From Candidatus Hermodarchaeota archaeon (lineage in GTDB: Archaea > Asgardarchaeota > Heimdallarchaeia > Hodarchaeales > Hodarchaeaceae): a DNA stretch of 32,000 bases. Each line of letters begins with the position of its first letter. Position 1 is the first letter of the stretch. Positions 15,630 through 29,134 of this stretch are shown in pieces. The position numbers and the translations under genes are program-made. The notes below the pieces were generated by a model. It saw nothing but the letters and a program-made list of their open reading frames with translations, was not told where the DNA came from and did not search any database. The stretch lies in the NCBI GenBank assembly GCA_048886185.1, contig JBHLKY010000007.1:150001-182000 (forward strand), written 5' to 3'.

Positions 15630-16319
15630 TCACTTTACTAAAAACCTGCTAATAAAGGAATTTATTCTCCACCAAATGTAATCAAGCCAATCAGCAAATT
15701 GGTTGATAATAGGTACCTCCATTTTCTCAATTAAAAAAGCAAGTAATATTGTTCCTATAAACCCTAAAACTTTAGAAGAGACATCATGTCCCCAATAAAA
15801 TGCAGCTTCAGCATCCATGTCGAAATATAACACTAAAATTGTTATGGACCAGAAATGGAAGGTTATTCTGAATACATTCATGAAGAATAATACGATAAAT
15901 GTTATTATAGTCGCTTTTAGCTTTGAGGATCTTGATGTTTCGGATACAAAGATAATACTAATGAGTAGAGCTCCTGCCTGCATCGCTGTACATGTTTTAG
16001 AAATATAATACCTACCATTTGTTAGTGGAATAAAAACTCCAGGTGTTTTTTCCGTTGCTTCTAAGAATGGGAAGGATCCTCCTCGAAGCTCCATTGGTAT
16101 AATAAATTGTCCATTGAAGGGTATAGGTTCACTAACAATACCCAACAATGAGAGAAGGAATTGAACGAGATCTCTAATAGGATATTCAAGAAAAACCCAG
16201 TCAGGAACAGTATAAATTAGAAATGTCAAAAAAGAAGCAACAGTAATGGATGTAAGCATAAGTTTGTCATTTTGGAATCTTCTATGTTGATTACTCTCAC
16301 TATTTTTTGTCAAATCCAT
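15630..16319 (-). CDS. Exosortase/archaeosortase family transpeptidase
   Basis: Polytopic protein with Cys (ISKTCTAM), Arg (NVFRI) and His (WGHDV) in exosortase order. ATG 16319 is preferred because longer starts overlap the upstream HTH gene. Confidence 0.8.
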   Translation of the reverse strand: MDLTKNSESNQHRRFQNDKLMLTSITVASFLTFLIYTVPDWVFLEYPIRDLVQFLLSLLGIVSEPIPFNGQFIIPMELRGGSFPFLEATEKTPGVFIPLTNGRYYISKTCTAMQAGALLISIIFVSETSRSSKLKATIITFIVLFFMNVFRITFHFWSITILVLYFDMDAEAAFYWGHDVSSKVLGFIGTILLAFLIEKMEVPIINQFADWLDYIWWRINSFISRFLVK

Positions 16320-16326
16320 CAATATC

Positions 16327-16545
16327 CTATTTCTCTGCAAATATGAAAATATCTTCAATTTTACAGTCAAATAGACGTGCAATCTTGAATGCTAGAGTAA
16401 GAGAAGGGTTATATTTTCCTTTTTCAATAGCGATAACGGTTTGTCTGGTGATGTTCAACTTATTGGCCAATTCTTCCTGTGTTAAACTATTTTCTTTGCG
16501 TAATTCTTTCAAACGGTTTTTAATCCTCATCACCGCGGATTTCAT
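16327..16545 (-). CDS. XRE/Cro-C1 family helix-turn-helix regulator
   Basis: KNRLKELRKENSLTQEELANKLNITRQTVIAIEKGKYNPSLTLAFKIARLF; ATGA overlap with the upstream gene. Confidence 0.95.
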   Translation of the reverse strand: MKSAVMRIKNRLKELRKENSLTQEELANKLNITRQTVIAIEKGKYNPSLTLAFKIARLFDCKIEDIFIFAEK

Positions 16546-21851: not shown

Positions 21852-23756
21852 ATGATGCAAGGAAGTCAAGGACTCAAAACAATAACTGGATTATCCGAAA
21901 CAAAACGATCTCAATCTGTAGTAATCATAGGTGTGATTATCGGAGTGTTTATGAATTGGCTAGCTCTTTATCTAAACGTGATTTTAGGACTATTATCCGT
22001 GGGTATTTCGAGTTTTGTAGTACTTTTGATGGTAAAAGTCTTACTCAGAGATAAAGCGACATCTGAGAATTTAACCTTGGTATCTGTAGCATATGGCGCA
22101 ACTTCCTCTGCAGAAGCAAGTGTTGGTTTATTATTCTTAATCTGGTTATATAATAATGCTAGAGTGTATGGCCTTTCTTTTAATCCACCAAGTTGGCTAT
22201 TACCAAGTCACGAAGTATTATCGGAACGTGTTGTTATAACTGTCGAATGGATTATTCCACTATTGATTCATTACTTCTTGATGTTTATTCCAGGCATAAC
22301 TGGGTTAATTTTGGGTGCCTATTTGGCCCCTAAATTTATACATAATGATGAAGAATACCCATTCCCTGGAACAATCCAACGTGTGAAGACTGTTGAGGTT
22401 CTTGTAACAAATCAGACATCTAAAGTAAGACTATTTAAAAAATTTCTAGCTATTGGGTTTGTTAGTGCATTTATTACCTTGTTTGTACCAATTATCGATT
22501 TATCTAACCTTGACTCTGGAATGATCTTTGGAATTATGCTAGGAACTATTGGAATTACGATGTTTACGCTTGGAGTTCTAATTAACTCCCCTAAAATTAC
22601 AATTCCTACTGGAATTGCATCTATTCTTACTTATACATTAATAGGGCCATTATTGTACACTAGAAGCGATTTTCATAGTAAAGTTAATCAGGGCATTTTT
22701 AGTAACGATTTTTTTGGCTTATATTCCTATCTCCTCCAAACAAAGTTTCTTTCCTTTCTTATTGGATTTATTCTATCAGCTGCTCTCATTTCTCCATATG
22801 TTTTTTCAATGATAAAGAGAGTTTATAGACGTCTCAGATCTAAAACAACTGAATCTCTAGAAGAAAATGTAACTGCAGAAATTCAAAATAATAATCCCAT
22901 AGCACATCCTACTCCTAAAAGTAGTGAAAAAACAAGCCAAATTTTCAATAAATTAAAATTTCAAGGTATAATTGGAAAAAAAGAATTACTTCTTTTCTTG
23001 ATGTACACACTGAGTTTGATTGGTTCAATGTTCTTCGTTATCTATTTAGATATTCTCCCCAATACAAATTATCTGCTAATTTTACTATTATTAATCTGGA
23101 TTTTGTTTTTAGGGTCATTGATTCAGGGTTTCATTACAGTGACGACGATTGCAAAGAGTGGAACAGCAGTAATTCCTCCTTTCCTTTTTGATAATTTACC
23201 ACTATTTTTTGTTGGAGCTAGAGGGATAACACCATATGTTGCTACACCAAAAGGGGAGGTTGGGGAGACCATTAATATTGTTTCAACCTTGAAGTTCGGA
23301 CAACAAATGAAAATCAACCCACGACACATTCTACCAGCATATTTTGCTGGATATGTGACCGCTGCCTTATTTACTCCGATTTTCACTCTATTTCTATGGA
23401 AAGCTCTCGGTATTGGGACTGTTGATTTCCCAGCGCCAGGATTCCCGATTTCAATTGCTTTGATTGGTCCCTTTGCAGCAGGAGCGATTGATGTATTTTT
23501 GAATATCGTTGAATTGATAGCTGGAGGATTTATTGCATTATTATTCCCAACGATTGGTGTTAGCTTAGCTATTGGGATGTTCTTTCCTCCTCACATGGCA
23601 GTTTGTATAACACTTGGAGGTTTAGTTGCTCTTATTCTCGAGAAAAAGAAGGGAAAAACATGGATGGATGATAGGGGTAAAATGGCCGCTACTGCAGTAC
23701 AAGTTGGAGCTACTTTAACAGTGCCTATCTTAATTCTTATGAAGCTATTTTTCTAA
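21852..23756 (+). CDS. OPT (oligopeptide transporter/YSL) superfamily membrane protein
   Basis: 634-aa polytopic protein with YPFPGT, APGFP and LAIGMFFPPH motifs characteristic of the OPT family. Confidence 0.75.
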   Translation: MMQGSQGLKTITGLSETKRSQSVVIIGVIIGVFMNWLALYLNVILGLLSVGISSFVVLLMVKVLLRDKATSENLTLVSVAYGATSSAEASVGLLFLIWLYNNARVYGLSFNPPSWLLPSHEVLSERVVITVEWIIPLLIHYFLMFIPGITGLILGAYLAPKFIHNDEEYPFPGTIQRVKTVEVLVTNQTSKVRLFKKFLAIGFVSAFITLFVPIIDLSNLDSGMIFGIMLGTIGITMFTLGVLINSPKITIPTGIASILTYTLIGPLLYTRSDFHSKVNQGIFSNDFFGLYSYLLQTKFLSFLIGFILSAALISPYVFSMIKRVYRRLRSKTTESLEENVTAEIQNNNPIAHPTPKSSEKTSQIFNKLKFQGIIGKKELLLFLMYTLSLIGSMFFVIYLDILPNTNYLLILLLLIWILFLGSLIQGFITVTTIAKSGTAVIPPFLFDNLPLFFVGARGITPYVATPKGEVGETINIVSTLKFGQQMKINPRHILPAYFAGYVTAALFTPIFTLFLWKALGIGTVDFPAPGFPISIALIGPFAAGAIDVFLNIVELIAGGFIALLFPTIGVSLAIGMFFPPHMAVCITLGGLVALILEKKKGKTWMDDRGKMAATAVQVGATLTVPILILMKLFF

Positions 23757-23776
23757 AAATCGATTAATTGAGAAAA

Positions 23777-24139
23777 TTATCTGTCTACAAGGACTGATAG
23801 AGTGTTATGGAACTCTGGTGGCTCGTGTTTTGGTACAACACTTACTACACGATAATCAATTCCCTTTTTTCGCTGAATAAGACTCGCTGAATGAGCACCT
23901 ATAAATCTGGATCGAACAGAAACCCTAGATCCAATCCACAAGAAAATCCTTTTTATAGTATCATTAATGAGAATATAGATTTCATTCTCCTGTAAATCAT
24001 CAAAATGATACTTTAACGATTTTAATTCCTCAGTTTCGGAATTTAATTGGAAGAAGTGCACATCACACTCTTCACTTTCTTTCTGATGAGGAAATTTTTC
24101 GTTCTTGCTAGATTTACAGATGGGAATATGTTGAAACAC
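23777..24139 (-). CDS. Single-domain gelsolin/villin-like protein (Asgard eukaryotic-signature-type)
   Basis: LQENEIYILIND...IFLWIG..S..SRFIGA..A...V..HEPPEF matches the gelsolin repeat. GAGG lies 8 nt before the GTG start; minus-strand TTATATATAAAG at 24206-24195. Confidence 0.8.
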   Translation of the reverse strand: MFQHIPICKSSKNEKFPHQKESEECDVHFFQLNSETEELKSLKYHFDDLQENEIYILINDTIKRIFLWIGSRVSVRSRFIGAHSASLIQRKKGIDYRVVSVVPKHEPPEFHNTLSVLVDR

Positions 24140-24308
24140 GGTTGTTTCCTCAATTTCCTGAGAAAAAGGCTTTCAAGAAAATCATCTTTTTGACCTTTAT
24201 ATATAATCGAAAGATGAGCAGAACATCATTCGTAACGTCAAGCTAAGTAGATGGGCACACTTGATGAATAACTTCCTGTGATGATTCAGCAAATTTAAAA
24301 ACGACAAT

Positions 24309-24410
24309 CTAACTAGTAATTCTTTTTAGAAATCTAAAGAAAAACGCAATAAATAATAATAAGATTCCTAACAATAGTAATATCAAAATAAAAGGAAATT
24401 GATCAGACAT
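24309..24410 (-). CDS. 33-aa single-TM microprotein B (MSDQFPFILILLLLGILLLFIAFFFRFLKRITS), not in the ORF track
   Basis: Hand translation from ATG 24410 to TAG 24309; same length and last 8 residues as the neighbouring sORF. Confidence 0.75.
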   Translation of the reverse strand: MSDQFPFILILLLLGILLLFIAFFFRFLKRITS

Positions 24411-24431
24411 TATTATACCAATAATTCTTTA

Positions 24432-24533
24432 TCAACTTGTGATTCTCTTAAGAAATCTCATGAGAACAGTTACAAATAATCCTAAAATGAATAAACCAAA
24501 TACAAAAAGCATTATTAAGAACCAGATTTCCAT
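24432..24533 (-). CDS. 33-aa single-TM microprotein A (MEIWFLIMLFVFGLFILGLFVTVLMRFLKRITS), not in the ORF track
   Basis: Hand translation from ATG 24533 to TGA 24432; GGGTGA ribosome-binding site 8 nt upstream. Confidence 0.8.
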   Translation of the reverse strand: MEIWFLIMLFVFGLFILGLFVTVLMRFLKRITS

Positions 24534-24575
24534 GAGATGATTCACCCAGATTATGAGAACACGTTCTTAATTTGC

Positions 24576-25316
24576 TTAATAGGATTTTTGAAATTTTTCT
24601 AATTTTCTATCTAATTCTTCTAATTTAGATTCCATTCCTTCCAGTCGAGTACTCATTAAATTCTTAATTTCCTTTAATTCAGAAAGCATTTGTAGTGGGA
24701 TTGATTCTAGGGGTTCTTCCTCACTTTTGGTTCCATAAGCAGCTTGAAATTGCCGAAGTTGCGTGAGAATGTAATCTCTTACTTCACGAAAAACTTTGAT
24801 TCCCTCCAATTTCTCTTCTGCGGTCTCATCGAGAGAGTACCCTTTTCCACCAGCTGTTTGGATTTCAATGGTTCCAATACCAAATAACCGATCAAAAGGG
24901 CCCGTTTTCATGTTGATGTTGGTCACTGTACGATAAGGAACATGTTTTTCCGATTTATTGATTAGTCCTTTGTGAACCACGATTTCATGGCCGTGAACGA
25001 TGAATAACATGGATTTGACGTATAGCTGCATCCCTACTATATAACAGATAGTGATGACAAACCAGATCGCTAAATAAATAGCCCCCATCCAGAAGAACGC
25101 CTGAAATAAAATCTCTCTCTGTGGTTCAGCGAGCTCTGGGCCTAACCAGGTGCCAAAACCACCAAAAATAATTATTAATGCAGCTGTGAAAATAATAAAC
25201 ACGATAACATATAGTAAGTAATTTTTCCATAAGAGATTTTTACTTGGGCGAATAATTCGGGGTTTCCCGGGTGGAGGGGGAATATCAGATCCCTTGATTA
25301 CCTTAACTTCATTCAT
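24576..25316 (-). CDS. Membrane-anchored bacterial-type PH domain protein (bPH_2/YdbS-like) with coiled-coil tail
   Basis: Two TM helices, then EIVVHKGLINKSEKHVPYRTVTNI...GPFDRLFGIGTIEIQTAGG. Confidence 0.88.
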   Translation of the reverse strand: MNEVKVIKGSDIPPPPGKPRIIRPSKNLLWKNYLLYVIVFIIFTAALIIIFGGFGTWLGPELAEPQREILFQAFFWMGAIYLAIWFVITICYIVGMQLYVKSMLFIVHGHEIVVHKGLINKSEKHVPYRTVTNINMKTGPFDRLFGIGTIEIQTAGGKGYSLDETAEEKLEGIKVFREVRDYILTQLRQFQAAYGTKSEEEPLESIPLQMLSELKEIKNLMSTRLEGMESKLEELDRKLEKFQKSY

Positions 25317-25906
25317 GGTTTTTCTCTTCTAATGATTTCATTAAATGTATCTTCAAATTGTTCTCGGGTTAATTTATCACTAAATGATTTTTTAAGTTCA
25401 TGTTCTTCTCTAATAAGATTAAGAATATCTTTACATTGATCTTGGCATTTAATATTACAAACATGCTCTTGCCAGAGAATGTACCCATCTTTTAGGGTAT
25501 AAAAAATGTAGACTTTTCTATCAATTCTAAAATCATGGCCATATAAAATACCATTTTTTTGAAGTAATTCTAGATTTTCCTCTTCCAGATTATCTTGAAT
25601 TGAAAGATCTAATCGAGACGTTTCAGCAAGTTCTATAAGTCCTTTACGGATTTTCTTTAGCCCTACTGATTTAAATTTTGAGATAGTCCGAATATCTACT
25701 TCCTTAGGCTCACGAAATCGCTTATCTTTCTTTCCTGTTTCTCTTTCCCGTTCTTTTATCCATTCTTCCCTCTCTTTCTCTAATACAACCGCGATTTCGT
25801 CTAGACTGATGTGTGGATTCTGAAAAATTTCTCGAATAACAACTCGCTCTGAGTCTGACAATTGAGTAGTCACACTAACAGCCTCTAGAAAGCTTTTACT
25901 GGCCAA
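25313..25906 (-). CDS. Archaeal HTH-type regulator-like protein with C-terminal His/Cys cluster
   Basis: LSDSERVVIREIFQNPHISLDEIA is HTH-like; WQEHVCNIKCQDQC; 4-nt overlap with the PH-domain gene; TTG start. Confidence 0.65.
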   Translation of the reverse strand: MASKSFLEAVSVTTQLSDSERVVIREIFQNPHISLDEIAVVLEKEREEWIKERERETGKKDKRFREPKEVDIRTISKFKSVGLKKIRKGLIELAETSRLDLSIQDNLEEENLELLQKNGILYGHDFRIDRKVYIFYTLKDGYILWQEHVCNIKCQDQCKDILNLIREEHELKKSFSDKLTREQFEDTFNEIIRREKP

Positions 25907-26251
25907 GTAATGTATTAGTTACTAATTATAATTCATTACTAATATCCCGTAATCTCTTTTTAAACCTTTCGTTTCCATAAATTAATGTAATTTTTTAACT
26001 CATTTTTGCCAATATTCTCTTCTTCATAAGATACTTCCTTTTCAAATGAAAGAGTTGACTTTCTTAGCTATTTTCCTAAATATAAACATTTATAAATATG
26101 TGACCAAAAAATAGTAACTGAAGAAAAAATGGTAACATTAGTAAAAAAGTCTATTGCTGATGTTGAAAGGAGCATAAAAATTGCTTAATCAAGAAACAAA
26201 AGTAAAATTTCTGATAAAATTGGTTATAGAGCCTGATGGAGGTTCTACATA

Positions 26252-26707
26252 ATGGCATGGATAGGTGGTGTTGTTGCTGCAACGGCAGCTTGCAATAATG
26301 GACGAAAGCGGAAAAAACCTAAGCTATTTGTATTGATTACTATGTTTTGTCTCATAATCGGAATTTTTGTACCTTTGGTATTACTCCTTGGCACACAAGG
26401 CAATCGTGAAATAATGCTTTTTCCATTAATCCTTATCATGATAATTGGAATCATTGTATTTATCGCTGCTAGTTTTGCTGAATCCCTGGATTATGATGAT
26501 GAAACTACAACTCATCATTATAGGAAATCAAGACCTTATCAAACTGAATCGAGATCAAACCATACTTCCTATCGTAATCCTGTAGCTGTAGAAGATTATT
26601 ATTGGGGATCTGAACCAAAATCAACCTCTTTTTTCTGCATTAATTGTGGTATGCGATTAGAGTCAGATGATCGGTTCTGTGCTTCCTGTGGATGGAGAGT
26701 AAATTAG
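26252..26707 (+). CDS. Two-TM membrane protein with C-terminal zinc ribbon
   Basis: Two hydrophobic helices and terminal FCINCG...FCASCG. Confidence 0.8.
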   Translation: MAWIGGVVAATAACNNGRKRKKPKLFVLITMFCLIIGIFVPLVLLLGTQGNREIMLFPLILIMIIGIIVFIAASFAESLDYDDETTTHHYRKSRPYQTESRSNHTSYRNPVAVEDYYWGSEPKSTSFFCINCGMRLESDDRFCASCGWRVN

Positions 26708-26726: not shown

Positions 26727-27536
26727 ATGCAAGTACAAGAAACTATAATTGAAACAAAACAAACTAAAAAAGTTCTTATCCGCACGGATAAGTTATCGAA
26801 ATATTATGGAAAAGAGATCAAAGCCGTGGAGGAGCTCGATCTTGAAGTATATGAAGGAGAAACATTCGGACTTCTTGGTCCTAACGGAGCTGGAAAAACC
26901 ACGACAGTTCGTCTTCTAAACTGTATTCTAAAACCAACCAGTGGTACTGCTGCTGTGAATAGCTACAACATTCTAAAAAATCCAAGAGAAGTAAAAGCCA
27001 TTTCTGGGTTGTTAGCGGAATCCCCAGGATTATATGAGAAGCTTAGTGCTTATGAGTTTCTTGAATTCATGGGAGCCCTTTATAATATCAAAGGAAATAT
27101 CCTAAAAGATAGGATTGAAGAGCTTTTAAAGCTATTCGGTCTTATAGAGAGGAAAGATTTTCTCCTTGAAGGTTTTAGCTCTGGAATGAAACAGAAAGTG
27201 TTAATTGCCGCAGCATTAATTCATGATCCTTCTATCATATACTTCGATGAACCTACAGCAGCACTGGATCCTCGTGCCGCTCACATGGTTAAAGATCTAA
27301 TTAAGGGATTAGCTGATCAACTTGGAAGAACTATTGTGATTTGCAGTCATATTCTTCCGATCGTTGAGGAGCTATGTGATCGAATTGGTATAATTAACCA
27401 AGGACGACTCATTGCTGTGGGTACAGTTGATGAAATCATTGCTCAAGCAGGAACTGAAACACTAGAAGAAGCTTTCATTGTCTTAACTGGAGGAATTGAT
27501 GAAAAAGAACTCCTAGCTTGGAGGAATCACAATTGA
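26727..27536 (+). CDS. ABC exporter ATP-binding protein
   Basis: GPNGAGKTT, FSSGMKQK, IYFDEP and CSH switch. Confidence 0.95.
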   Translation: MQVQETIIETKQTKKVLIRTDKLSKYYGKEIKAVEELDLEVYEGETFGLLGPNGAGKTTTVRLLNCILKPTSGTAAVNSYNILKNPREVKAISGLLAESPGLYEKLSAYEFLEFMGALYNIKGNILKDRIEELLKLFGLIERKDFLLEGFSSGMKQKVLIAAALIHDPSIIYFDEPTAALDPRAAHMVKDLIKGLADQLGRTIVICSHILPIVEELCDRIGIINQGRLIAVGTVDEIIAQAGTETLEEAFIVLTGGIDEKELLAWRNHN

Positions 27537-29134
27537 TTTCGTTCCGAAACACTCGTTGGTTACCAATCGCTAAAACCGAATATCGTGTAACAACGAGTCG
27601 AATTCGTGAAATTAGGCCTTATCTTCCCTATATATTAATTGGAGGATTGGCTATTTATACCTTTTTCATAGCTCCTTATATCATTGATATGTTTGTCGAT
27701 GAATTACACGAGTTATTGCTTTCAGCTGTAGCTGTAGCTCTTATCGATGTGTTCTTTTTCGTATTTTTTGTAATGTTTGCGTCTTTTCCAATCGCGTCAA
27801 CTTTACAGGATATTAAAACAGAACATATTGAGATCTATCTTTCTTCTCCTGTCCTATCTAGTGATATTTTGATTGGTGAATTCTTGGGAAAAATCCCCTT
27901 TTATGCTGCCTTTGCAGCGATCATTGGTGGTACTTTTACCGCGGCATTGTTCCCCCTTGGTTTAGACATCTTCCAGATTTTCATTATTCTTGTAGTTTTT
28001 ATAATCCTCTTCCTAACAGCTACTTGGGTTGGAAACCTAATAGCTGCGCTATTACGATCAATTTTAATGAAATCAGCTCGAGGAAGAGATATTGGTAAAG
28101 GTTTAGCAATAATCGTAATCTTACCATTAGTTGCTGTAATATATCTATTAATTGGTGGATATTATGAAGTTCTTAAAAATCCTGAAAACGCAAAGCTTGT
28201 CCAGGATCTGTTCGGATTCTTTCCATGGGGATGGGGATCAGAGACCATCGTAGCTCTTGCCCAGAATCCTGGAAATATCTTGGATATTGAATTCACAACA
28301 ATCATACAATTCAGCACATTAGTAACCTTCTTCTGTGCTTCTCTTTTGATAGGTGGATTTTTAGCCAATCGTTTATACAATCTTGAACCAACTTCTTTTT
28401 CCGCCTCTAAATCAAAATCAGACAGTTTCTTCTATAACTCTATCACAAAGCTCGGTGGTGGTGGATCATCAGGCCTTCTTCTTTCATTAGGGTTTAAGAC
28501 CTATTTTCGGAAAGCAAAAAACGTTGCGTGGATAATCTATTGCGTGGGTTTAATTGTTGTAATGAATATCTTCCTAACACAGCCTGATGATCCAGAGAGT
28601 GCCTTTGTTATGTCTTTATTTATAGGCCCTCTTTTAGCGGCTTTCGTTACTTCTGATATCAGTCTACAGGGAAAAGAAAACCTCTTACTCTATAAGCAAA
28701 CCCCTACGATGACAAGAAAATATTTGAGGATTAAACTGTTTCAATATCTATTAATAATTCTACCAATCGTATTAATTGTTGAAACTACTGTCAACTTACT
28801 TGTTCCAGAAATAACATTGGATATACTGTTTCTTAATGTTATCTTGACACTCCTCATTGCCACAGCAGCTATTACTTTTACGTTTGGTTTATTTCTAGTA
28901 AATCCCGCATTTCATGACAAAAGTGGTGAATTCATGATTAATATCCAAATTTGTGTTTTTGGAGTCATGATTCCATTCTTTATTTTGATGATTTTCTTGG
29001 ATCCGATTCTGTGGGATGTATTTGCCATCGCAGATGCACTCTATCCTGTGGCAGTAATTTATTCTGCTTTACAACTGATCTTTGGTATAATCATGGTCTC
29101 GCTAGGAGCAAGAAAACTCAATTCCATGGAGTAA
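27533..29134 (+). CDS. Large ABC exporter permease (multi-TM)
   Basis: Two hydrophobic halves; GGAGGA precedes TTG 27533, which overlaps the ATPase stop (preferred over 27518). Confidence 0.78.
   Translation: MISFRNTRWLPIAKTEYRVTTSRIREIRPYLPYILIGGLAIYTFFIAPYIIDMFVDELHELLLSAVAVALIDVFFFVFFVMFASFPIASTLQDIKTEHIEIYLSSPVLSSDILIGEFLGKIPFYAAFAAIIGGTFTAALFPLGLDIFQIFIILVVFIILFLTATWVGNLIAALLRSILMKSARGRDIGKGLAIIVILPLVAVIYLLIGGYYEVLKNPENAKLVQDLFGFFPWGWGSETIVALAQNPGNILDIEFTTIIQFSTLVTFFCASLLIGGFLANRLYNLEPTSFSASKSKSDSFFYNSITKLGGGGSSGLLLSLGFKTYFRKAKNVAWIIYCVGLIVVMNIFLTQPDDPESAFVMSLFIGPLLAAFVTSDISLQGKENLLLYKQTPTMTRKYLRIKLFQYLLIILPIVLIVETTVNLLVPEITLDILFLNVILTLLIATAAITFTFGLFLVNPAFHDKSGEFMINIQICVFGVMIPFFILMIFLDPILWDVFAIADALYPVAVIYSALQLIFGIIMVSLGARKLNSME

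Follow-up and report, generated by a model that had tools for sequence, protein, structure and literature searches.

Tandem genes for predicted membrane microproteins with a conserved basic tail behind a bPH_2 gene in Hodarchaeales

Small partners and peptide cargo of membrane machines

In archaeal genomes, annotation is poorest for small membrane proteins. Small single-pass proteins are known as partners of membrane machines, as with AcrZ and AcrB, KdpF and KdpABC, MgtS, or the regulins including phospholamban and SERCA. To our knowledge, no small membrane protein has been described in Hodarchaeales, an order proposed to contain the closest relatives of eukaryotes. We describe here a pair of small open reading frames (sORFs), called A and B, found in a stretch of 32,000 nucleotides (nt) from Candidatus Hermodarchaeota archaeon (order Hodarchaeales; GenBank assembly GCA_048886185.1, contig JBHLKY010000007.1, positions 150,001 to 182,000, or G000:C7:150001-182000 in our genome numbering). 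This whole stretch is called the window below. The two sORFs specify peptides that end in the same eight residues, RFLKRITS, and they lie directly behind the gene of a bPH_2 membrane protein.

The biochemical role of bPH_2 membrane proteins is, as far as we know, not established in any organism. The DUF304 family (now PF03703) was tied to bacterial pleckstrin homology (PH) domains by Xu et al. (PMC2817789). In the membrane families the PH domains were predicted to be intracellular, and the proteins were proposed to be transporters or pores in which the PH domains mediate oligomerisation; the ring oligomers that were solved all belong to the soluble PF08000 family (PMC2817789). A functional tie to small peptides comes from Enterococcus faecalis, where export of the two tandem leaderless EntDD14 peptides depends on DdE as well as on DdF, two bPH_2 proteins of the YdbS/YdbT type; the enterocin DD14 cluster also holds an ABC transporter (PMC8657885). 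Genome mining has found leaderless-bacteriocin clusters composed of one or more core peptides, PH/bPH_2 proteins, ABC genes and a helix-turn-helix (HTH) regulator (PMC11580447).

The Hodarchaeales locus resembles both kinds of system. Like the AcrZ/KdpF/MgtS/regulin class, it encodes proteins of less than 50 amino acids (aa) with one transmembrane (TM) helix and a short charged segment predicted to be cytoplasmic, placed beside a larger membrane protein (members of the class are encoded beside, or co-regulated with, theirs) and overlooked by annotation. There is, however, no sequence relationship, and the likeness is one of analogy only. Moreover, the putative partner here is a bPH_2 protein and not a pump with an established function, the conserved element is the tail at the C-terminus, not the helix, and three paralogues occur in variable copy number. 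With the EntDD14/L50 (ddAB, ddEF, ddHIJ), aureocin A53 and lacticin Q clusters, in which there is a functional link between bPH_2 proteins and peptides, the locus shares its gene content. It differs from them by its archaeal host, by uniformly apolar TM anchors in place of cationic amphipathic helices, by a tail predicted to be cytoplasmic and by a single one-domain bPH_2 gene in place of a YdbS+YdbT pair; in addition, the Hodarchaeales peptides are not known to be secreted or antimicrobial. In the literature searched, no such component is described in an Asgard bPH_2/ABC setting. The parallel with leaderless-peptide clusters, the third paralogue, the divergent ABC-2 exporter of the locus and the narrow range of the family are all absent from an earlier note on this DNA, which had been made from the letters of the window.

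The sORF pair and its family

Both sORFs are on the minus strand and, exactly as the earlier note described, each measures 102 nt including the stop, with starts 123 nt apart. sORF A (24432..24533; ATG at 24533, stop TGA) encodes a predicted single-pass membrane microprotein of 33 aa, with an acidic N-terminal tip, 23 uncharged residues and RFLKRITS. Its paralogue sORF B (24309..24410; ATG at 24410, stop TAG), also of 33 aa, has an N-terminal tip with F-P-F, 21 uncharged residues and the same tail. A starts 42 nt downstream of the bPH_2 stop codon and B starts 21 nt past the stop of A. The Shine-Dalgarno (SD)-like sequence GGGTGA proposed for A is indeed present, 8 nt 5' of its ATG (24542..24547, minus strand); the GTG at 24545, given as the start of A in a mechanical list of open reading frames, falls inside this ribosome-binding site.

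The two peptides are 48% identical overall, with diverged TM parts and 8/8 identical tail positions. Within the tail, the codons differ at four third positions and by no amino acid, which agrees codon by codon with what had been quoted, down to the different stops. Given 5.17 synonymous sites among the 24 tail bases, the chance of 4/4 changes being synonymous is P ~0.002. The likeness is not due to chance: when the assembly of 4.84 Mb is translated in six frames, the strict tail pattern turns up at only two places, both of them at the pair.

Orthologues of the neighbouring 246-aa bPH_2 protein were taken from 40 related genomes and the DNA downstream of them was inspected for sORFs. The assigned frame is open in 18/18 copies, while the remaining five frames carry 10-102 stops in total. 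The ratio of non-synonymous to synonymous substitution rates (dN/dS), obtained according to Nei and Gojobori (NG86), lies at 0.10-0.36 in nearly every pair of orthologues, two distant pairs with 0.7-0.8 being the exceptions; by group, it is 0.10-0.36 for sORF A (33-aa group) and 0.0-0.36 for sORF B. When the whole stretch is aligned at the nucleotide level, the spacers are rich in indels whereas the open reading frames are constant in length and frame. In the relatives, a GGTG, GGAG or one-mismatch motif precedes every A, B and C start (C being a third paralogue, described below) by 5-10 nt. Because of this open frame, low dN/dS, constant length and conservation of SD-like sites, sORFs A and B are almost certainly protein-coding genes under purifying selection. 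The earlier note had argued that both are translated and had named stops or frameshifts in orthologous loci as grounds for giving this up; no such lesion is seen in the 18 copies, so that the coding claim stands.

An alignment of 24 sequences from the three paralogous groups gives a uniform architecture. In 24/24 sequences, the first eight residues carry a charge of 0 to -2 and the last nine a charge of +3 to +5; the net charge is +1 to +3. The ends are separated by 19-24 uncharged residues, a stretch that is interrupted in the C type by a single Asn. For the 18-residue segment that scores best, the Eisenberg mean hydrophobicity <H> is ~1.0 and the hydrophobic moment muH 0.03-0.15 (1.05 and 0.03 for sORF A). 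High <H> combined with low muH indicates an anchor that spans the membrane rather than a surface-active amphipathic helix, and A, B and C can, with near certainty, be predicted to be single-pass membrane microproteins. According to the positive-inside rule, the basic flank of a TM helix stays cytoplasmic. Since the N-terminal tip is acidic and the C-terminal tail basic, the N-terminus is predicted to be outside and the tail to lie on the cytoplasmic side of the membrane.

A mid-helix Gly, an L-F pair and the tail are conserved in all three groups; a proline motif (P-x-P or F-P) just N-terminal of the helix is found in B copies but not in A or C. The tail consensus is [RK]-F-[LI]-[KR]-[KR]-[IV]-T-[SRK], in which the Thr at position -2 is invariant (24/24 sequences) and the Phe nearly so. 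In a simple stop-transfer signal the order of Lys and Arg should not matter, so that the fixed Phe and Thr suggest that something specific reads the tail. Together with the four synonymous and zero non-synonymous changes between A and B, they bear out the earlier view of the tail as a selected motif. By eye, the tail matches the pattern K/R-K/R-x-T of sites for basophilic kinases and could be such a site. Its reading as a KKXX or PDZ-type signal was dropped as the residue positions do not fit.

Orthologues of A and B are found directly 3' of the orthologous bPH_2 gene in 9/9 sORF-bearing species, all from one Hodarchaeales genus, with spacers of about 40 nt from bPH_2 to A and of 20-45 nt from A to B. 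The conservation and the synteny with the PH-domain gene that the earlier note had in mind are thus both found. In the eight species other than that of the window, the bPH_2 orthologue is 71-88% identical and is followed, at a distance of no more than about 40 nt, by one to three sORFs, each specifying an apolar helix and a tail of the consensus given above. One genome (G009) has a second sORF that is begun and then cut off by the contig end, another (G012) has an additional tandem copy, and in a third (G015) the copy in the B position resembles C. Each genome carries 2 to 4 copies (2-3 matches each at a stricter threshold, up to 4 otherwise). The peptides, of 32-36 aa, sort into three groups of orthologues: groups A and B are encoded behind the bPH_2 gene, group C elsewhere. 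sORF C, recovered with a 17-sequence profile, encodes 35 aa on the plus strand at G000:C7:185968-186072 (L049:1501-1605), that is, 3968-4072 bases past the end of the window and 11.5 kb from the A/B pair. It has GGTGAAA before its ATG and the mid-helix Asn mentioned above, and it is syntenic in five species, with a flavin-reductase gene on one side and an S-adenosylmethionine-dependent methyltransferase gene on the other.

With a 24-sequence profile, the family was detected in 9/83 genomes of the class, all nine belonging to a single genus (9/22 of its genomes). No member was found in the 13 other genomes of the genus, nor, at E<=1e-4, among 61 genomes drawn from 17 further genera of the class. 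Members of the genus whose bPH_2 protein is 50-65% identical keep the regulator-like gene that precedes it and the bPH_2 gene itself, after which other genes follow and no sORF is present; at the one sORF-less locus with a longer flank, the ABC genes are kept as well. Because related species have the module without the sORFs, the family would have arisen, or survived, in one subclade only.

Databases contain almost no trace of these peptides. Pfam gave no match at E<=0.01, PADLOC none, and NCBIfam only chance-level matches (E>=0.066) with no sorting-domain model among them, in agreement with the earlier statement that no known family is recognisable. The exact A, B and C sequences and those of five orthologues are not in a collection of 15 billion proteins. 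When a profile was run against 1.84 billion representatives, three proteins from singleton clusters came up, of 35, 36 and 73 aa, one of them labelled 'hypothetical protein'; the 73-aa one corresponds to a B-type frame read from an upstream start. In the ESM Atlas, the best scores were 0.80-0.81, to unnamed clusters. A lead to PF28111, 'transporter-adjacent small subunit' (ESM Atlas 0.75), was too weak to be used. Among sequencing runs, the stretch turned up only in DNA runs of sediment metagenomes, from which it may itself derive, and in no RNA run listed. The family is new, unannotated and without detectable relatives, although its general kind, small single-pass proteins beside a larger membrane protein, is known. 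It offers a clean case that comparative genomics has validated, with three paralogues apparently born within one genus, a strongly selected tail predicted to be cytoplasmic and genes physically linked to that of a bPH_2 membrane protein. The narrow range (9/83 genomes of the class) limits its general reach, and the family has as yet no bearing on eukaryote-like trafficking or cytoskeleton.

The conserved module and its Asgard parallels

The sORFs belong to a conserved module with two arms. The first comprises a regulator-like protein, the bPH_2 protein and sORFs A and B; the second is a divergent unit with an ABC-2 exporter. Both arms are syntenic wherever the flanks reach, whereas the genes beyond sORF B are not.

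In the first arm, the regulator-like gene (197 aa; 25313..25906, minus strand) is syntenic in all loci and overlaps the bPH_2 gene by 4 nt. The bPH_2 gene (246 aa; 24576..25316, minus strand) encodes a TM hairpin, a PF03703 domain (E=2.7e-14, 53.6 bits for a cut-off of 22) and a long C-terminal helix; identity to the orthologue is 83-88% in seven species and falls to 71% in an eighth. The AlphaFold2 model of the protein has a pLDDT of 58 and is confident only in the TM hairpin (residues 26-102), and a sequence search of the PDB with the bPH_2 alignment found nothing. Upstream of the hairpin, residues 9-24 (window 25240-25290, minus strand) follow the proline-rich pattern G-S-D-I-P-x-P-P-x-x-P-R-I-I-R-P, invariant in 13/13 orthologues, and make up a conserved peptide that is probably cytoplasmic; bPH_2 homologues of Thorarchaeota begin with a similar V-I-K-P-P motif.

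By eye, the N-terminal part of the 197-aa protein shows an HTH pattern of the sigma-70 region-4/LuxR type with an inserted basic stretch. The protein also has an invariant W-Q-x-H-x-C-x3-C-x3-C, which recalls the zinc-binding motifs of anti-sigma factors. It matches no Pfam or NCBIfam model, and its AlphaFold2 model, despite a pLDDT of 83, has no Foldseek match in the PDB at E<=0.001. Paralogues of this protein precede the other bPH_2 clusters.

The divergent unit, on the plus strand, starts with a 151-aa membrane protein having a C-terminal zinc ribbon (26252..26707), for which the Pfam matches are just under the cut-offs; this gene is syntenic in 8/9 related loci with flanks, the ninth locus being cut short on that side. 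It is followed by an ABC ATPase of the DrrA/ABC-2 exporter type (26727..27536; PF00005 E=1.8e-24; TIGR01188 drrA 256.8 bits for a cut-off of 312) and by an ABC-2-like permease of 538 aa (27518..29134) with a weak PF01061 match (20.3 bits, cut-off 26.9). Both are syntenic in the related loci, with 76-91% identity for the ATPase and 60-85% for the permease.

On the other side, a T5 tract (24297..24301, minus strand) lies 7 nt 3' of the stop of sORF B and might end transcription of the four-gene unit, as archaeal oligo-T terminators do; the presence of the tract is inconsistent among orthologues. A scan for promoters and terminators of the bacterial type gave no terminator, its models being bacterial and uninformative for an archaeal host. 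Farther downstream in the window are a gelsolin-like gene (23777-24139, minus strand; PF00626 19.5 bits, just under the cut-off of 21) and an OPT transporter gene (21852-23756, plus strand) that adjoins the sORF region. In nine related loci compared with flanks of 6 kb, neither gene follows the sORFs. Synteny thus breaks off where sORF B ends, and the tie to gelsolin, which the earlier note had considered as a partner, fails along with any tie to the OPT transporter.

The bPH_2 homologues of Thorarchaeota are organised in clusters of an HTH gene and three or four bPH_2 genes. The corresponding loci (L061-L073) were scanned for small apolar open reading frames, and two conserved sORF families were recovered. 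T1 (32 aa; e.g. L071:5627-5725) follows the first bPH_2 gene and is found at 8 loci, with a non-synonymous to synonymous ratio pN/pS of 0.30. T2 (30 aa; e.g. L071:8207-8299) comes directly after the last bPH_2 gene and is found at 11 loci, with a pN/pS of 0.58. Both are predicted to have a single TM helix, and each has a GGAGG-type site upstream. These loci gave no homologue of the RFLKRITS family. T1 and T2 resemble that family in size (30-33 aa), in the single TM helix, in the strong SD sites and in the HTH/bPH_2 setting, within another Asgard class. They have, however, no sequence similarity to it; they are basic at the N-terminal end, lack a basic C-terminal tail, have the opposite predicted topology and lie within clusters of three or four bPH_2 genes. 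Their occurrence nevertheless suggests that genes for single-helix microproteins are a repeated feature of Asgard bPH_2 clusters, and this recurrence supports a functional tie between microprotein and bPH_2 protein beyond the Hodarchaeales loci alone. As bPH_2 proteins of bacteria are needed in peptide export, the locus may also offer a testable handle on membrane PH-domain proteins.

What the peptides may do

We tentatively favour a role of the peptides as additions to the bPH_2/ABC-2 membrane module, its partners or its clients, expressed from the same transcript, with a tail that is read by a common partner. A and B would be carried on one transcript with the regulator-like protein and the bPH_2 protein, and within the membrane these small peptides would assist, or be handled by, that bPH_2 protein and the ABC-2 exporter of the divergent unit. 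Their TM helix may pack on the TM hairpin of the bPH_2 protein, while the invariant tail would serve as a handle for a shared partner in the cytoplasm, for which the membrane-proximal PH domain is the likeliest candidate. The peptides could thereby adjust, or exploit, a type of module whose bacterial counterparts deal with membrane-active peptides. Such a partner role is favoured by their pure TM character and by the conserved tail, predicted to be cytoplasmic. As in accessory subunits, they are single-pass, of less than 50 aa, and encoded beside the putative partner across species (9/9). Co-folding of the bPH_2 protein with sORF A from alignments gave ipSAE values of 0.01 and 0.00 for a mark of 0.32, which counts neither way.

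Several observations nevertheless weigh against a role as partners of the module. In the first place, C stands alone in an intergenic region of ~1.1 kb, away from any bPH_2 gene or exporter. Secondly, the second bPH_2 cluster of the genome (G000:C7:194614-199480), 20 kb away, which encodes a 165-aa HTH protein, three tandem bPH_2 proteins, an ABC ATPase and a 447-aa permease, carries no such sORF. Thirdly, the module exists without sORFs in related species, so that its basic function does not depend on the peptides; they would be a recent addition rather than a core part. Finally, the variable copy number (2-4) and the lineage-specific turnover are closer to what is seen with effector or cargo peptides than with fixed subunits.

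These last points lead to the main alternative, unlikely on balance though deserving serious consideration, in which A, B and C are leaderless membrane-active peptides (archaeocin-like, or otherwise secreted or extruded) and the bPH_2 protein and ABC-2 transporter provide export and self-protection. The gene content is the same as in the bacterial clusters, with tandem paralogous peptides, a YdbS-like bPH_2 protein, an HTH-like protein and an ABC transporter (PMC8657885; PMC11580447). As in class IId bacteriocins, the candidate core peptides are small and in tandem (A and B are 21 nt apart) and, at only 32-36 aa, cannot comprise a leader plus a mature part; the locus likewise combines a bPH_2 protein of the YdbS/YdbT kind (PF03703, 53.6 bits) with a divergent DrrA-type ATPase and an ABC-2-like permease. 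Multiple copies, fast divergence and restriction to a lineage are typical of effectors, machinery without peptide genes in related species recalls orphan immunity loci, and the non-homologous sORFs of Thorarchaeota would fit an interchangeable cargo. The peptides are not, however, the cationic amphipathic helices of class IId: with a net charge of +1 to +3, 19-24 uncharged residues, an <H> of ~1.0 and a muH that does not exceed 0.15, they look like resident TM anchors. Moreover, their conserved part is a basic tail predicted to be cytoplasmic, they have no sequence similarity to any bacteriocin family, and copy C is distant from any exporter. An extension of this idea, rather improbable in our view, is that Asgard archaea have a leaderless-peptide system of their own, in which bPH_2 and ABC-2 proteins would handle the fast-evolving RFLKRITS and T1/T2 peptides as membrane-active effectors, either archaeocins or toxins directed at the producing cell, rather than as passive subunits. 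If this extension held, bPH_2 would be a general peptide-handling device of bacteria and of the archaeal relatives of eukaryotes.

Type I toxins such as Fst, Ldr, TisB and Hok are peptides of ~30-50 aa with one TM helix and a charged tail, present in multiple copies over a narrow range. The idea that the Hodarchaeales peptides similarly depolarise the membrane of their own cell, restrained by an antisense RNA, has little probability. The peptides are small, hydrophobic and predicted to be in the membrane, and with Fst, Ldr and TisB they also agree in size, in the single TM helix with charged C-terminal tail, in the tandem and dispersed copies and in the narrow range. Copy C, isolated in its intergenic region, could have a promoter and leader of its own. 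By contrast, A and B are placed as the distal genes of a putative operon, with open SD sites, and their starts, 42 nt and 21 nt past the preceding stops, would leave no room for a promoter of their own and a structured leader. In addition, the place behind the bPH_2 gene is kept in 9/9 species, no antisense frame was detected among the sORF copies, and the Rfam search of window 23700-26300 gave no match; neither an antisense RNA nor a long structured leader is evident.

It is very improbable that the peptides are stand-alone sorting signals of the archaeosortase type, processed by the heimdallarchaeosortase encoded at 15630-16382. The succession of a motif, a TM helix and a basic cluster resembles C-terminal archaeosortase signals, B copies have P-x-P or F-P before the helix, and the sortase gene is 8 kb away. 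However, the proline motif is missing from A and C copies, the likely substrates of this genome bear different signals (of the L-L-P-V-x-Q...I-I-I-R-R and P-G-F types), no sorting-domain model of NCBIfam was matched, and the peptides have neither cargo domain nor signal peptide. Their identity as PGF-CTERM/heimdallarchaeosortase signals was rejected on this motif comparison. Least probable of all is that the sORFs are not genes, being chance frames or a conserved RNA or DNA element: the absence of their exact sequences from 15 billion proteins would agree with this, but it is already contradicted by the comparative data, with a frame open in 18/18 copies against stops in every other frame, a dN/dS far under 1, tail changes mainly at third positions, conserved SD sites and no match in Rfam.

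The heimdallarchaeosortase gene itself is on the minus strand of the window and scores 233.7 bits with NF045528 (cut-off 130). About ten large proteins of the genome end with L-L-P-V-x-Q-x-L-E...I-I-I-R-R-x-Q and are probably sortase substrates; separate tails of the P-G-F type are also present.

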